Shown in pieces: positions 249-5,578 of a stretch of DNA of 6,508 nt. Under the pieces are notes generated by a model. The model was not told the origin of the DNA. It saw only the letters and a list, made by a program, of their open reading frames with translations, and did not search any database. The translations under genes and the position numbers were made by a program. Position 1 is the first letter of the stretch. Each line of letters begins with the position of its first letter. The stretch comes from a virus (Duplodnaviria > Heunggongvirae > Uroviricota > Caudoviricetes): IMG/VR virus record IMGVR_UViG_2531839146_000005. One strand, 5' to 3'.

Positions 249-664
249 GTTTTGCCCTGAAACTGGCGCGCGAGATGGGGCGACCCGACTGGCGTGCCAT
301 GCTTGCCGGGATGTCATCCACGGAGTATGCCGACTGGCACCGCTTTTACAGTACCCATTATTTTCATGATGTTCTGCTGGATATGCACTTTTCCGGGCTG
401 ACGTACACCGTGCTCAGCCTGTTTTTCAGCGATCCGGATATGCATCCGCTGGATTTCAGTCTGCTGAACCGGCGCGAGGCTGACGAAGAGCCTGAAGATG
501 ATGTGCTGATGCAGAAAGCGGCAGGGCTTGCCGGAGGTGTCCGCTTTGGCCCGGACGGGAATGAAGTTATCCCTACTTCCCCGGATGTGGCGGACATGAC
601 GGAGGATGACGTAATGCTGATGACAGTATCAGAAGGGATCGCAGGAGGAGTCCGGTATGGCTGA
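230..664 (+). CDS. T: Tail assembly protein T frame, expressed as the C-terminal part of the G-T fusion via -1 frameshift; no independent initiation expected
   Basis: Open frame 230..664 in the -1 frame relative to G, translating VFDGELSFALKLAREMGRPDWRAMLAGMSSTEYADWHRFYSTHYFHDVLLDMHF...EGIAGGVRYG, recognisable as lambda gpT. Stop TGA 662-664 overlaps the H start (ATGGCTGA). Confidence 0.88.
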   Translation: MFDGELSFALKLAREMGRPDWRAMLAGMSSTEYADWHRFYSTHYFHDVLLDMHFSGLTYTVLSLFFSDPDMHPLDFSLLNRREADEEPEDDVLMQKAAGLAGGVRFGPDGNEVIPTSPDVADMTEDDVMLMTVSEGIAGGVRYG

Positions 665-3236
665 ACCGGTAGGCGATCTGGTCGTTGATTTGAGTCTGGA
701 TGCGGCCAGATTTGACGAGCAGATGGCCAGAGTCAGGCGTCATTTTTCCGGTACGGAAAGTGATGCGAAAAAAACAGCGGCAGTCGTTGAACAGTCGCTG
801 AGCCGACAGGCGCTGGCTGCACAGAAAGCGGGGATTTCCGTCGGGCAGTATAAAGCCGCCATGCGTATGCTGCCTGCACAGTTCACCGACGTGGCCACGC
901 AGCTTGCAGGCGGGCAAAGTCCGTGGCTGATCCTGCTGCAACAGGGTGGTCAGGTTAAGGACTCCTTCGGCGGGATGATCCCCATGTTCAGGGGGCTTGC
1001 CGGTGCGATCACCCTGCCGATGGTGGGGGCCACCTCGCTGGCGGTGGCGACCGGTGCGCTGGCGTATGCCTGGTATCAGGGTAACTCAACCCTGTCCGAT
1101 TTCAACAAAACGCTGGTCCTTTCCGGCAATCAGGCGGGACTGACGGCAGATCGTATGCTGGTCCTGTCCAGAGCCGGGCAGGCGGCAGGGCTGACGTTTA
1201 ACCAGACCAGCGAGTCACTGACGGCGCTGGTGAATGCCGGTGTGCGTGGTGGTGAGCAGTTTGAGGCGATCAGCCAGAGTGTGGCGCGTTTCTCCTCTGC
1301 ATCCGGTGTGGAGGTGGACAAGGTCGCTGAAGCCTTCGGGAAGCTGACCACAGACCCGACGTCGGGGTTGACGGCGATGGCACGCCAGTTCCATAACGTG
1401 ACGGCGGAACAGATTGCGTATGTTGCTCAGTTGCAGCGTTCCGGCGATGAAGCCGGGGCATTGCAGGCGGCGAACGAGGCCGCAACGAAAGGGTTTGATG
1501 ACCAGACCCGACGCCTGAAAGAGAACATGGGCACGCTGGAGACCTGGGCAGACAGGACAGCACGGGCATTCAAATCCATGTGGGATTCGGTGCTGGATAT
1601 TGGTCGCCCGGACACTGCCCAGGGAATGCTGGAGAAAGCAGAAAAGGCTTTTGATGAGGCGGACAAAAAATGGCAGTGGTATCAGAGCCGGAGCCACCGG
1701 CGCGGTAAAACCTCAGCATTTCTTGCCAATCTCCGGGGAGCATGGGAGGACAGAGCGAATGCGCAACTTGGGCTTTCCGCCGCCACGTTGCAGGCCGATC
1801 TTGAAAAGGCCAGAGAGATGGCAGCAAAGGACTGGGCCGAGTCTGAGGCATCACGGCTGAAATATACCGAAGAGGCGCAGAAGGCTTACGAACGCCTGCA
1901 GACGCCGCTGGAGAAATATACCGCCCGTCAGGAAGAACTGAACAAGGCACTGAAAGACGGGAAAATCCTGCAGGCAGATTACAACACGCTGATGGCGGCG
2001 GCGAAAAAGGATTATGAAGCGACGCTGAAAAAGCCGAAACAGTCCGGCGTGAAGGTGTCTGCGGGCGATCGTCAGGAAGACAGTGCTCATGCTGCCCTGC
2101 TGACGCTTCAGGCAGAACTCCGGACGCTGGAGAAGCATGCCGGAGCGAATGAGAAAATCAGCCAGCAGCGCCGGGATTTGTGGAAGGCAGAAAGTCAGTT
2201 CGCGGTACTGGAGGAGGCGGCACAACGTCGCCAGCTGTCCGCACAGGAGAAATCCCTGCTGGCGCATAAAGATGAGACGCTGGAGTACAAACGCCAGCTG
2301 GCTGCACTTGGCGACAAGGTTACGTATCAGGAGCGCCTGAACGCGCTGGCGCAGCAGGCGGATAAATTCGCACAGCAGCAACGGGCAAAACGGGCCGCCA
2401 TTGATGCGAAAAGCCGGGGGCTGACTGACCGGCAGGCAGAACGGGAAGCCACGGAACAGCGCCTGAAGGAACAGTATGGCGATAATCCGCTGGCGCTGAA
2501 TAACGTCATGTCAGAGCAGAAAAAGACCTGGGCGGCTGAAGACCAGCTTCGCGGGAGCTGGATGGCAGGCCTGAAGTCCGGCTGGAGTGAGTGGGAAGAG
2601 AGCGCCACGGACAGTATGTCGCAGGTAAAAAGTGCAGCCACGCAGACCTTTGATGGTATTGCACAGAATATGGCGGCGATGCTGACCGGCAGTGAGCAGA
2701 ACTGGCGCAGCTTCACCCGTTCCGTGCTGTCCATGATGACAGAAATTCTGCTTAAGCAGGCAATGGTGGGGATTGTCGGGAGTATCGGCAGCGCCATTGG
2801 CGGGGCTGTTGGTGGCGGCGCATCCGCGTCAGGCGGTACAGCCATTCAGGCCGCTGCGGCGAAATTCCATTTTGCAACCGGAGGATTTACGGGAACCGGC
2901 GGCAAATATGAGCCAGCGGGGATTGTTCACCGTGGTGAGTTTGTCTTCACGAAGGAGGCAACCAGCCGGATTGGCGTGGGGAATCTTTACCGGCTGATGC
3001 GCGGCTATGCCACCGGCGGTTATGTCGGTACACCGGGCAGCATGGCAGACAGCCGGTCGCAGGCGTCCGGGACGTTTGAGCAGAATAACCATGTGGTGAT
3101 TAACAACGACGGCACGAACGGGCAGATAGGTCCGGCTGCTCTGAAGGCGGTGTATGACATGGCCCGCAAGGGTGCCCGTGATGAAATTCAGACACAGATG
3201 CGTGATGGTGGCCTGTTCTCCGGAGGTGGACGATGA
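657..3236 (+). CDS. H: Tail tape measure protein (tail length determinant), 859 aa
   Basis: Long ORF starting MAEPVGDLVVDLSLDAARFDEQMARVRRHF, matching the lambda gpH N-terminus. Shine-Dalgarno AGGAGGAG at 643-650, 8 nt before ATG 657. Large Ala/Gln/Arg/Glu/Lys-rich central region typical of coiled-coil tape measure proteins. Gly-rich hydrophobic segment near the C-terminus. Position after G/T matches the conserved order. Confidence 0.95.
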   Translation: MAEPVGDLVVDLSLDAARFDEQMARVRRHFSGTESDAKKTAAVVEQSLSRQALAAQKAGISVGQYKAAMRMLPAQFTDVATQLAGGQSPWLILLQQGGQVKDSFGGMIPMFRGLAGAITLPMVGATSLAVATGALAYAWYQGNSTLSDFNKTLVLSGNQAGLTADRMLVLSRAGQAAGLTFNQTSESLTALVNAGVRGGEQFEAISQSVARFSSASGVEVDKVAEAFGKLTTDPTSGLTAMARQFHNVTAEQIAYVAQLQRSGDEAGALQAANEAATKGFDDQTRRLKENMGTLETWADRTARAFKSMWDSVLDIGRPDTAQGMLEKAEKAFDEADKKWQWYQSRSHRRGKTSAFLANLRGAWEDRANAQLGLSAATLQADLEKAREMAAKDWAESEASRLKYTEEAQKAYERLQTPLEKYTARQEELNKALKDGKILQADYNTLMAAAKKDYEATLKKPKQSGVKVSAGDRQEDSAHAALLTLQAELRTLEKHAGANEKISQQRRDLWKAESQFAVLEEAAQRRQLSAQEKSLLAHKDETLEYKRQLAALGDKVTYQERLNALAQQADKFAQQQRAKRAAIDAKSRGLTDRQAEREATEQRLKEQYGDNPLALNNVMSEQKKTWAAEDQLRGSWMAGLKSGWSEWEESATDSMSQVKSAATQTFDGIAQNMAAMLTGSEQNWRSFTRSVLSMMTEILLKQAMVGIVGSIGSAIGGAVGGGASASGGTAIQAAAAKFHFATGGFTGTGGKYEPAGIVHRGEFVFTKEATSRIGVGNLYRLMRGYATGGYVGTPGSMADSRSQASGTFEQNNHVVINNDGTNGQIGPAALKAVYDMARKGARDEIQTQMRDGGLFSGGGR

Positions 3237-3562
3237 AGACCTTCCGCTGGAAAGTGAAACCCGGTATGGATGTGGCTTCGGTCCCTTCTGTAAGAAAGGT
3301 GCGCTTTGGTGATGGCTATTCCCAGCGAGCGCCTGCCGGGCTGAATGCCAACCTGAAAACGTACAGCGTGACGCTTTCTGTCCCCCGTGAGGAGGCCACG
3401 GTACTGGAGTCGTTTCTGGAAGAGCACGGGGGCTGGAAATCCTTTCTGTGGACGCCGCCTTATGAGTGGCGGCAGATAAAGGTGACCTGCGCAAAATGGT
3501 CGTCGCGGGTCAGTATGCTGCGTGTTGAGTTCAGCGCAGAGTTTGAACAGGTGGTGAACTGA
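3233..3562 (+). CDS. M: Minor tail protein M, 109 aa
   Basis: ORF MKTFRWKVKPGMDVASVPSVRKVRFGDGYSQRAPAGLNANLKTYSVTLSV... with ATG overlapping the H stop (ATGA at 3233-3236). GGAGG at 3221-3225, 7 nt upstream. Length and sequence match lambda gpM. Confidence 0.93.
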   Translation: MKTFRWKVKPGMDVASVPSVRKVRFGDGYSQRAPAGLNANLKTYSVTLSVPREEATVLESFLEEHGGWKSFLWTPPYEWRQIKVTCAKWSSRVSMLRVEFSAEFEQVVN

Positions 3563-4260
3563 TGCAGGATATCCGGCAGGAAACACTGAATGAATGCACC
3601 CGTGCGGAGCAGTCGGCCAGCGTGGTGCTCTGGGAAATCGACCTGACAGAGGTCGGTGGAGAACGTTATTTTTTCTGTAATGAGCAGAACGAAAAAGGTG
3701 AGCCGGTCACCTGGCAGGGGCGACAGTATCAGCCGTATCCCATTCAGGGGAGCGGTTTTGAACTGAATGGCAAAGGCACCAGTACGCGCCCCACGCTGAC
3801 GGTTTCTAACCTGTACGGTATGGTCACCGGGATGGCGGAAGATCTGCAGAGTCTGGTCGGCGGAACGGTGGTCCGGCGTAAGGTTTACGCCCGTTTTCTG
3901 GATGCGGTGAACTTCGTCAACGGAAACAGTGACGCCGATCCGGAGCAGGAGGTGATCAGCCGCTGGCGCATCGAGCAGTGCAGCGAACTGAGCGCGGTGA
4001 GTGCCTCCTTTGTACTGTCCACGCCGACGGAAACGGATGGCGCTGTTTTTCCGGGGCGCATCATGCTGGCTAACACCTGCACCTGGATCTATCGCGGTGA
4101 TGAGTGCGGTTATAATGGCCCAGCTGTCGCTGATGAATATGACCAGCCGACATCTGATATCTCGAAGGATAAATGCAGTAAATGCCTGAGCGGCTGTAAG
4201 TTCCGCAATAACGTCGGCAACTTTGGCGGCTTCCTTTCCATTAACAAACTTTCGCAGTAA
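3562..4260 (+). CDS. L: Minor tail protein L, 232 aa, with C-terminal cysteine cluster (Fe-S binding in the gpL family)
   Basis: ORF MQDIRQETLNECTRAEQSASVVLWEIDL..., same length as lambda gpL. Start overlaps the M stop (TGATG at 3560-3564). Cysteines in ...ANTCTWIYRGDECGYNG...KDKCSKCLSGC... at the C-terminus. Confidence 0.93.
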   Translation: MQDIRQETLNECTRAEQSASVVLWEIDLTEVGGERYFFCNEQNEKGEPVTWQGRQYQPYPIQGSGFELNGKGTSTRPTLTVSNLYGMVTGMAEDLQSLVGGTVVRRKVYARFLDAVNFVNGNSDADPEQEVISRWRIEQCSELSAVSASFVLSTPTETDGAVFPGRIMLANTCTWIYRGDECGYNGPAVADEYDQPTSDISKDKCSKCLSGCKFRNNVGNFGGFLSINKLSQ

Positions 4261-4265
4261 ATCCC

Positions 4266-5009
4266 ATGACAGAGACAGAATCAGCGATTCTGGCGCACGC
4301 CCGGCGATGTGCGCCAGCGGAGTCGTGCGGCTTCGTGGTGAGAACGCCGGAGGGGGAAAGATATTTTCCCTGCGTAAATATCTCCGGTGAGCCGGAGGAT
4401 TATTTTCGGATGTCGCCGGAGGACTGGCTGCAGGCAGAAATGCAGGGTGAGATTGTGGCGCTGGTCCACAGTCATCCCGGTGGTCTGCCCTGGCTGAGTG
4501 AGGCTGACCGGCGGCTGCAGGTGCAGAGTGATTTGCCGTGGTGGCTGGTCTGCCGGGGGGCGATTCATAAGTTCCGCTGTGTGCCGCATCTCACCGGGCG
4601 GCGCTTTGAGCACGGGGTGACGGACTGTTACACGCTGTTCCGGGATGCTTATCATCTGGCGGGGATTGAGATGCCGAATTTTCATCGCGGGGATGACTGG
4701 TGGCGTCACGGCCAGAATCTCTATCTGGATAATCTGGAGGACACAGGGCTGTATCAGGTGCCGTTGTCATCAGCACAACCGGGCGATGTGCTGCTGTGCT
4801 GTTTTGGTTCATCGGTGCCGAATCATGCCGCCATTTACTGTGGTGACGGCGAGCTGCTGCACCATATTCCTGAACAACTGAGCAAACGAGAGAGGTATAC
4901 CGACAAATGGCAGCGACGCACACACTCCCTCTGGCGTCACCGGGCATGGCGCGCATCTGCCTTTACGGGGATTTACAACGATTTGGCCGCCGCATCGACC
5001 TTCGTGTGA
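4266..5009 (+). CDS. K: Tail assembly protein K, JAMM/MPN metallopeptidase domain plus NlpC/P60-like domain; 247 aa from ATG 4266 (alternative internal start at 4410 would give 199 aa)
   Basis: ORF MTETESAILAHARRCAPAESCGFVV...ALVHSHPGGLPWLSEAD...GVTDCYTLF...NHAAIYCG... JAMM motif H-x-H-x7-S-x2-D at residues 68-81 (nt 4467-4508). Upstream E-x-C-G (E19, nt 4320-4331). Candidate NlpC/P60 catalytic Cys121 (nt 4626-4628). ATG 4266 lies 5 nt after the L stop. Confidence 0.88.
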   Translation: MTETESAILAHARRCAPAESCGFVVRTPEGERYFPCVNISGEPEDYFRMSPEDWLQAEMQGEIVALVHSHPGGLPWLSEADRRLQVQSDLPWWLVCRGAIHKFRCVPHLTGRRFEHGVTDCYTLFRDAYHLAGIEMPNFHRGDDWWRHGQNLYLDNLEDTGLYQVPLSSAQPGDVLLCCFGSSVPNHAAIYCGDGELLHHIPEQLSKRERYTDKWQRRTHSLWRHRAWRASAFTGIYNDLAAASTFV

Positions 5010-5578
5010 AAACGGGGGCTGAAGCCATCCGGGCGCTGGCCACACAGCTCCCGGCGTTTCGTCAGAAACTGAGCGACGGCTGGTATCAGGTACGGATTTC
5101 CGGGCGGGACGTCAGCACGTCCGGATTGACGGCGCAGTTACATGAGGTTCTGCCTGACGGCGCTGTGATTCATATTGTTCCCAGAGTCGCCGGGGCCAAG
5201 TCAGGGGGCGTATTCCAGATTGTTCTGGGGGCTGCCGCCATTGCCGGATCATTCTTTACTGCCGGAGCCACCCTTGCAGCATGGGGGGCAGCCATTGGGG
5301 CCGGTGGTATGACCAGTATCCTGTTTTCTCTCGGTGCCAGTATGGTACTTGGTGGTGTGGCGCAGATGCTGGCACCGAAAGCCAGGACGCCCACGGCAGC
5401 AAGTACAGATAACGGCAAACAGAACACCTATTTCTCCTCACTGGATAACATGGTTGCCCAGGGCAATGTTCTGCCCGTTCTGTACGGTGAAATGCGCGTG
5501 GGGTCGCGGGTGGTCTCTCAGGAGATCAGCACGGCAGACGAAGGGGATGGTGGTCAGGTTGTGGTGATTGGTCGCTGA
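4907..5578 (+). CDS. I: Tail assembly protein I, 223 aa; N-terminal ubiquitin-like region ending in Gly-Gly, C-terminal Gly/Ala-rich hydrophobic region
   Basis: ORF MAATHTLPLASPGMARICLYGDLQRFGRRIDLRVKTGAEAIRALATQ..., matching lambda gpI length (223 aa) and sequence. Overlaps the 3' end of K by 103 nt in a different frame, as in lambda. GG at residues 100-101 (nt 5204-5209) followed by VFQIVLGAAAIAGSFFTAGATLAAWGAAIGAGG. Confidence 0.9.
   Translation: MAATHTLPLASPGMARICLYGDLQRFGRRIDLRVKTGAEAIRALATQLPAFRQKLSDGWYQVRISGRDVSTSGLTAQLHEVLPDGAVIHIVPRVAGAKSGGVFQIVLGAAAIAGSFFTAGATLAAWGAAIGAGGMTSILFSLGASMVLGGVAQMLAPKARTPTAASTDNGKQNTYFSSLDNMVAQGNVLPVLYGEMRVGSRVVSQEISTADEGDGGQVVVIGR

Follow-up and report, generated by a model that had tools for sequence, protein, structure and literature searches.

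Gene K of the tail module analyzed here is very probably translated from an ATG at position 4266 as a 247-residue protein with two peptidase domains, and the ATG at 4410, from which the classical 199-residue lambda K is read, is most likely an internal methionine of that protein. The DNA examined is a 6,508-nucleotide stretch (hereafter the window) of the IMG/VR virus record IMGVR_UViG_2531839146_000005. At the level of sequence and structure modeling, the long form of K is supported by its open reading frame, the conservation of its residues, the family and fold to which it belongs, its junction with the upstream gene L and a discrepancy located in the lambda reference genome. The 247-residue K is in itself already known from RefSeq, from GenBank and from a domain architecture described in 2006. 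The useful residue of the present analysis is an explicit account of how the textbook 199-residue lambda K arose, together with a warning about start calling.

Organization of gene K and its two candidate starts

The window contains a lambda-type tail module with genes arranged as G/T, H, M, L, K, I and J, in which the neighbors of K match the Pfam families Phage_min_tail, Phage_tail_L and Lambda_tail_I. All features located below lie on the plus strand. Gene L (3562..4260), found in the list of open reading frames and matching Phage_tail_L with 335.7 bits, encodes the 232-residue minor tail protein L, is annotated as such in PV340555 and in RefSeq, and terminates with TAA at 4258-4260. A spacer of 5 nt, ATCCC (4261..4265), with no Shine-Dalgarno (SD) sequence upstream of the K start, separates this stop from full-length K (4266..5009; 247 residues, 28.3 kDa), in which a JAB/MPN+ domain is followed by an NlpC/P60 domain; among close relatives the spacer is 4-5 nt long. 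The 48 disputed codons (4266..4409) include those for P17, E19, C21, G22, N38 and F47; Glu19, predicted to serve as the catalytic glutamate in the JAMM site, is encoded by GAG at 4320..4322 in the context A-E-S-C-G-F. An SD-like GGAGG (4394..4398), which codes for part of P43-E44-D45, stands 11 nt before the ATG at 4410..4412, the codon for Met49 in the 4266 frame and the classical start of the 199-residue form. Further downstream are the JAMM zinc-site motif HSHPGGLPWLSEAD (H68-S-H70-x7-S78-x2-D81, residues 68-81; 4467..4508) and the NlpC/P60 (C40) cysteine-peptidase domain (Pfam PF00877, residues 111-224; 4596..4937), whose predicted catalytic residues Cys121 (4626-4628), His187 (4824-4826) and His199 (4860-4862) were assigned from where they fall in the Pfam and structural matches. 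Gene I (4907..5578; Lambda_tail_I, 94.8 bits), encoding the ubiquitin-like tail assembly protein, begins within K in a different frame, so that the two genes share the final 103 nt of K; lambda I is annotated at the equivalent position. Direct reading of the sequence recovered the L stop, both ATGs, the GGAGG, Glu19 and HSHPGGLPWLSEAD exactly where the original prediction had located them. Its proposal of two candidate starts holds for this sequence but does not carry over to the lambda reference, in which the two ATGs sit in different frames.

None of the phage records searched matched the window in its entirety; identity over the full length reached 97.7% at best. The segment 3562-5578, comprising L, K and I, shows 100% identity with Escherichia phage PhiR26_1 (PV340555.1), whose record annotates a 744-nt K, and several E. 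coli chromosomes match positions 3900-5100 with 100% identity. A K relative was detected in 4,375 of 5,426 complete E. coli genomes. RefSeq annotates DNA identical to this gene as encoding a 247-residue C40 family peptidase (WP_000140740.1), with the start 5 nt after L, and in contigs from ENA and Logan that carry a 199-residue call the 48 codons ahead of the called start form an uninterrupted in-frame extension. Rfam yielded no RNA family in the window, and promoter and terminator scans of the window gave counts near the shuffled expectation; one terminator-like match corresponded to a hairpin containing the GGAGG and was treated as mRNA structure rather than as a terminator.

Family membership and predicted fold of the long form

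An open stretch of 48 codons has a probability of about 0.10 of arising by chance and is not significant alone, so the weight given to the upstream codons derives from conservation, profile and fold tests and not from the length of the reading frame. The 247-residue K matched the Prok-JAB profile (PF14464; gathering cutoff 25 bits) with 52.7 bits over residues 4-98, spanning profile positions 4-103 of 114, whereas the 199-residue form reached 22.9 bits, below the cutoff, and covered only profile positions 63-103. By themselves, the 48 upstream residues scored 24.3 bits. The complete JAMM motif of K comprises E19, H68, H70, S78 and D81; HSHPGGLPWLSEAD fits the pattern H-x-H-x7-S-x2-D, Glu19 lies 49 residues ahead of His68, and E19 is exclusive to the protein initiated at 4266. 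The claim that the long form alone possesses a complete JAMM/MPN site was borne out by four independent lines of evidence: the profile scores, the distant homologs, the close relatives and the predicted structure. PHROG 30 was matched with 546 bits by the long form versus 440 bits without the upstream residues, and the archaeal desampylase model NF041370 gave a weak match over residues 3-114 with the long form only. In a phmmer comparison, K residues 7-105 were matched with the JAB protein 2kks such that the two P-x-E-x-C-G motifs coincided, Glu19 of K pairing with the glutamate of that motif in the PDB entry.

The AlphaFold2 model of K, computed from an alignment of 97 homologs described below, had a pLDDT of 97.1 and a pTM of 0.91. 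Residues 1-48 form a helix (3-15) and two strands (21-27 and 30-36) that are integral to the MPN domain of the model, so structure prediction, one of the checks originally suggested, placed the disputed residues inside the MPN fold. Foldseek searches with the predicted N-terminal domain retrieved Pyrococcus furiosus JAMM1 (5ld9/5lda), Rpn11, CSN5 and AMSH; the match to PfJAMM1 5ld9 had a probability of 1.00, an rmsd of 2.7 Å over about 110 aligned columns and a target TM score of 0.65. The C-terminal part of K matched NlpC/P60 (PF00877; gathering cutoff 23 bits) with 46.8 bits over residues 111-224, covering the full profile (1-105), and its predicted structure retrieved MepS/Spr, LytE and the Acd autolysins with rmsd values of 2.6-3.1 Å. 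K is accordingly assigned to the JAB/MPN+ (JAMM) family by profile, motif and predicted fold, and to the NlpC/P60 family (MEROPS C40) by profile, modeled fold and catalytic residues. Residues 1 to about 105 are predicted to constitute a JAB/MPN+ zinc-isopeptidase domain with Glu19, His68, His70, Ser78 and Asp81 as its site, and residues 111-224 a cysteine peptidase employing Cys121, His187 and His199. We infer catalytic activity for the JAB domain.

Conservation of the 48 upstream codons

An exhaustive HMMER search returned 2,773 cluster representatives at E ≤ 0.001, and for representatives with 35-60% identity and lengths of about 230-260 residues the alignment began at query residues 1-19. 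From 97 full-length sequences with 33-58% identity we built the homolog alignment. The E-x-C-G region proposed to accompany the JAMM motif proved well conserved, with P17 kept in 88 of the 97 homologs, E19 in 96, C21 in 91 and G22 in all 97; N38 (97) and F47 (95) were likewise retained. In the remainder of the protein, H68, H70 and D81 were invariant (97/97), S78 was present in 90/97, and C121, H187 and H199 were each conserved in at least 90% of the 97 sequences. Position 49 was variable, being occupied by Ile in 65 homologs, Leu in 13, Met in 12 and Val in 5. The N-termini of the homologs matched query residue 1 or 2 in 90 of 96 cases, a figure inflated by the selection of the 97 sequences for near-N-terminal alignment, which does not affect the conservation of individual residues. 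Searching annotated phages with tblastn, we found a K relative in 1,744 records, the matches starting at query residues 1-8 even where identity was as low as 26%.

Among close relatives in IMG/VR, the 247-codon frame beginning at the homologous ATG was intact in all 79 readable sequences. In this set of low divergence (n = 80, pS about 0.09), pN/pS was 0.24 in codons 2-48, compared with 0.13 in codons 49-105 and 0.135 in the remaining codons 106-247, and the 38 polymorphic sites in codons 2-48 were distributed over codon positions 1/2/3 as 10/5/23. The synonymous bias suggested as a test of the upstream 48 codons is therefore present among close relatives, with changes falling mainly at third positions. 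The overlapping reading frames at 4223-4390 (plus strand) and 4281-4709 (minus strand) were set aside as products of a mechanical listing, since polymorphism in the K frame, with its excess at third positions, argues against them. A search for the locus with an 11-sequence alignment retrieved close relatives only and nothing more distant.

Initiation at the L-K junction

Upstream of ATG 4266, the duplex with the anti-SD sequence had a predicted energy of +0.7 kcal/mol, in the 98th percentile of all window 20-mers, in agreement with the earlier observation that this start has no good SD. RNA folding around ATG 4266 revealed no unusual structure (z +0.98). The lack of an SD and the position of this ATG 5 nt past the L stop together point to re-initiation after L, in which ribosomes completing L would resume translation at ATG 4266. 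Such coupling might keep the output of K low, as would suit a non-structural assembly factor and would agree with published findings on lambda gpK, which tail assembly requires but which virion analyses did not detect.

The arrangement recurs in six distant phages, in which K is annotated with 236-260 residues and starts either overlapping the L stop or no more than 2 nt away. The K start and the L stop share 4 nt in Tls, Burkholderia phage SBP33 and Serratia phage Niamh and 1 nt in Erwinia phage Midgardsormr38, and in mEpX1 and Pseudomonas phage CF54a the K ATG comes 1-2 nt after the stop; in several of these six, an SD-like element precedes the K start. Judged from these sequences, the 5-nt, SD-less junction of the window is a variant of a family-wide L-K arrangement. 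Given the proximity of the K start to the L stop both in the distant phages and in the window, we consider termination-reinitiation coupling between L and K the most likely mechanism.

Internal initiation at ATG 4410

The alternative that survives best, although we hold it to be unlikely, would add to the preferred explanation rather than replace it: a nested, in-frame pair in which K247 is made from 4266 and a second product, K199 of 23.0 kDa, from 4410, the latter with the NlpC/P60 domain intact and the JAB domain crippled. Pairs of nested in-frame products are familiar from lambda itself, in C/Nu3 and S107/S105. The element ahead of ATG 4410 is strongly SD-like, with an anti-SD duplex of -9.5 kcal/mol (top 4% of window 20-mers); 77 of 80 close relatives have the GGAGG and 79 of 80 have ATG 4410, and gene finders often pick this ATG. 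The 10-11 nt spacing between the two is, however, longer than the usual SD-start optimum, and both GGAGG and AUG 4410 are enclosed by a predicted stable structure (4382..4421), the segment 4375-4425 having a minimum free energy of -22.5 kcal/mol (z -3.5), which 1 of 200 shuffles equaled. The GGAGG is also accounted for by the conserved P43-E44 codons, and its conservation says little at a pS of about 0.09, three close relatives being without it. Across the family, the replacement of Met49 by Ile, Leu or Val in 83 of the 97 diverse homologs argues that a K199 start is no general feature. Were K199 made in the E. coli lambda-like clade, an improbable event in our estimation, it might by analogy act as a modulator or a competitor of K247 when the tail tip is assembled, and the modeled RNA structure could tune the K247:K199 ratio; the outer stem of this structure is lost in phage-21-type variants.

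Origin of the 199-residue lambda K

The suggestion that ATG 4410 corresponds to the classical start of lambda K was confirmed, K being annotated at 14276-14875 in NC_001416 and ATG 4410 being equivalent to lambda 14276. That K is made solely from this ATG, with 4261-4409 an untranslated spacer between L and K, is nevertheless very improbable. It is the annotation given in NC_001416/J02459, in UniProt-style entries and in the records of DE3 and lambda imm434, and it has in its favor an SD ahead of 4410 and none ahead of 4266. The 48 residues of this supposed spacer, on the other hand, match Prok-JAB on their own, carry invariant residues of the family, are under purifying selection in the K frame and are needed to complete the predicted fold, and the call itself depends on a reference sequence that is short of one G.

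Where NC_001416 reads GGAGGC-TATTTCC, both the window and phage 21 are one base longer, and the base missing from the lambda reference is a G after 14266. In the reference, the ATG at 14133 consequently opens a frame of 76 codons that departs from the K frame after residue 45, and the K frame itself has a stop codon just upstream of ATG 14276. The longer sequence, GGAGGCGTATTTCC, was found in five independently sequenced lambda-derived genomes, namely Lambda_AGU (LC730321), PV340536, KT232076, prophage DE3 (EU078592) and lambda imm434 (OM418626). In whole-genome comparison, LC730321 and PV340536 had eight common differences from the reference, among them the deletion of G138 and the insertion of G after 14266. 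Once this G is put back, lambda K has 247 residues, of which 237 are identical to those of the window K, and three of the ten amino acid differences fall within residues 1-48. The classical 199-residue lambda K is an annotation artifact of one G missing from the 1982 reference; lambda K was called with 199 residues in 1982 because this omission shifts ATG 14133 out of frame. The sequence notes of a commercial supplier for lambda cI857 Sam7 DNA carry the entry 'insert G at 14266'. Nine such differences from the reference have been described in many laboratory lambdas (Feiss et al. 2022, PMC9119081). Our literature search found no paper on the K start or on the missing G after 14266.

The annotated length of K varies with the record: 199 residues in NC_001416, DE3 and lambda imm434, 211 in KT232076, and 247 in PV340536 and phage 21. 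The G is also missing from two further lambda records, OR474059 and OR974322, which look reference-derived and hence supply no independent evidence: the former is marked UNVERIFIED and, designed markers aside, is identical to the reference from 1 to 24513, and the latter has none of the eight differences common to the independent assemblies. We therefore give very little credence to a true deletion in reference lambda, which would leave a dispensable JAB domain and either a JAB-less 199-residue K or a -1 frameshift, since the two records that share the deletion are not independent of the reference and five lambda-derived genomes from different laboratories contain the G, even though a real stf frameshift in laboratory lambda (cited in PMC10721106) offers a precedent. 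A programmed -1 frameshift joining the two lambda frames was rejected: inspection by eye, as opposed to a formal scan, disclosed no slippery heptamer of the X XXY YYZ type between the -1-frame and 0-frame stops, and the re-sequenced lambdas contain the extra G.

Consequences for annotation and experiment

Users of NC_001416/J02459, be it for mass spectrometry databases, expression constructs, structure prediction or mutagenesis, obtain a K that is short of 48 residues, and these residues hold the predicted catalytic glutamate and part of the JAB core. Gene finders that favor SD sequences still truncate K in many assemblies, and SD-biased start calling probably truncates the neighboring gene I as well. 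Peptides encoded upstream of Met49 include TETESAILAHAR and CAPAESCGFVVR, both tryptic, and YFPCVNISGEPEDYFR. The proposal of 2006 that K cleaves I, taken up below, can be properly tested solely with the 247-residue K.

Comparison with known systems

By orthology and gene order, the window K is best assigned as the lambda-type tail tip assembly protein K. Its orthologue is lambda gpK (NP_040598.1, annotated with 199 residues), with which it has in common the gene order M-L-K-I-J and the junction of the L stop with the ATG; the lambda reference entry differs in starting at Met49, and the window K at ATG 4266, a difference caused by the G absent from J02459. In lambda, gpK is needed for tail assembly (PMC12617516), and mass spectrometry of virions did not detect it (PMC10721106).

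Iyer, Burroughs and Aravind (2006, PMC1779556) described the TAPK family as JAB plus NlpC/P60 proteins encoded beside the ubiquitin-like TAPI. The role that they proposed for the JAB domain is to free the ubiquitin-like domain by a cut at the C-terminal glycine of the latter. The window K has the same two-domain architecture, adjoins I and J and differs in nothing that we could find from a typical member of this family. Protein I is, following the same authors, the predicted substrate of K. In cryo-EM structures gpI is visible from residue 101 (PMC11101478) or 135 (PMC10721106) onward, and the I protein of the window reads ...AGAKSG100-G101, with AGAKSGG (residues 95-101) as the glycine-rich end of its ubiquitin-like domain; the two observations are compatible with, and suggestive of, cleavage of I by K, without proving it.

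Outside phages, the closest parallels to the N-terminal domain are the archaeal JAMM desampylases, PfJAMM1 (5ld9/5lda) and Haloferax volcanii JAMM1, whose minimal MPN+ fold, like that of K, comprises about 110-130 residues and bears the E...HxH...S..D zinc site. These enzymes cut ubiquitin-like SAMPs off their fusion or conjugate partners, an activity that parallels the predicted relation of K to I, and 5lda is a complex of PfJAMM1 with the ubiquitin-like SAMP2. The identity between K and the desampylases is, however, 21-24%, and K reaches 28 bits with NF041370 against a cutoff of 130 bits, so it is not an equivalog. Unlike the desampylases, K carries a fused NlpC/P60 domain and is encoded in a phage tail module, and its activity is a predicted one. 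The C-terminal domain has its counterparts in E. coli MepS/Spr (2k1g, 8xup) and Bacillus subtilis LytE, with which it shares the papain-like fold and a Cys-His-His triad, both predicted in K. MepS/Spr and LytE are secreted peptidoglycan D,L-endopeptidases, whereas K has no annotated signal peptide and was not found in the virion (PMC10721106).

Short K calls and the lambda reference

The 199-aa K proteins form large clusters, each with thousands of member sequences, at three loci on ENA and Logan contigs (L182, L183 and L185), and these clusters stem from gene callers choosing Met49. At the same loci, the 149-nt "intergenic" gap upstream of the short calls is open, in-frame K coding sequence, and the gene callers that gave the 199-aa K also called I at 182-190 aa.

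Five lambda-derived genomes that were sequenced independently (LC730321, PV340536, KT232076, DE3 and lambda imm434) carry a G that is absent from the 1982 lambda reference at NC_001416 14266/14267, a site corresponding to 1267-1268 of locus L003 and to about 4399-4400 of the window. Two of these, LC730321 and PV340536, share seven further differences from the reference, namely delG138, 20661 A>G, 22444 A>G, 25662 T>C, 31016 T>C, 34934 A>G and 45618 T>C; in the stf region, LC730321 additionally has one more C, at 20833.

Predicted RNA structure around ATG 4410

A stable RNA structure was predicted at 4382-4421 (-22.5 kcal/mol, z -3.5), in which the SD-like GGAGG is paired and AUG 4410 is bracketed. 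Its core consists of the direct repeat GCCGGAGGA (4391-4399 and 4415-4423) together with the complementary CUCCGG (4383-4388), and a terminator scan also marked 4381-4398 with a T-rich tail. The structure has no covariation support, and its outer stem is weakened in phage-21-type variants.

Start of gene I and its ubiquitin-like domain

Annotations disagree on where gene I (4907-5578, plus strand) begins; other candidate starts lie at 4946 and 5006. The lambda annotation uses the equivalent of ATG 4907, preceded by a GAGAGG SD (-9.3 kcal/mol) and giving 223 aa, and ATG 4946 would give a 210-aa form. PV340555 and RefSeq PGAP place the start at GTG 5006, in a 4-nt overlap with the K stop, giving a 190-aa form; no SD precedes this GTG. 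The Pfam profile Lambda_tail_I matched the 223-aa and 210-aa forms at 94.8 bits (profile positions 2-83) and 94.7 bits, respectively, whereas the 190-aa form reached only 63.7 bits (positions 26-83). In the I homologues of Tls and Erwinia, only two to three residues separate the N-terminus from the start of the domain. Given this domain position and the fall in score and coverage, the 190-aa call has probably lost the beginning of the ubiquitin-like domain.

At its other end, the domain closes in the window I protein with AGAKSGG (residues 95-101, nt about 5189-5209). The K JAB domain was proposed to remove the ubiquitin-like domain of I (Iyer et al. 2006, PMC1779556), and cryo-EM models of gpI start at residue 101 (PMC11101478) or 135 (PMC10721106), leaving the N-terminal domain unseen. 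These models are compatible with such removal, although flexibility of the N-terminal domain would explain its absence equally well.

Upstream tail genes and origin of the window

The G/T junction carries GGGAAAG at 224-230, the sequence at which programmed -1 frameshifting takes place in lambda G-T, and the ORF downstream of it (230-664) corresponds to the T frame. Over its full length the window reaches at most 97.7% identity to any phage record, which suggests that it derives from a mosaic prophage. The tape-measure ORF H (657-3236, plus strand), which starts at ATG 657 behind the SD GGAGGAG (-10.3 kcal/mol), encodes 859 aa in the window as against 853 aa in both lambda and PhiR26_1, and the window is therefore unlike PhiR26_1 upstream of L.
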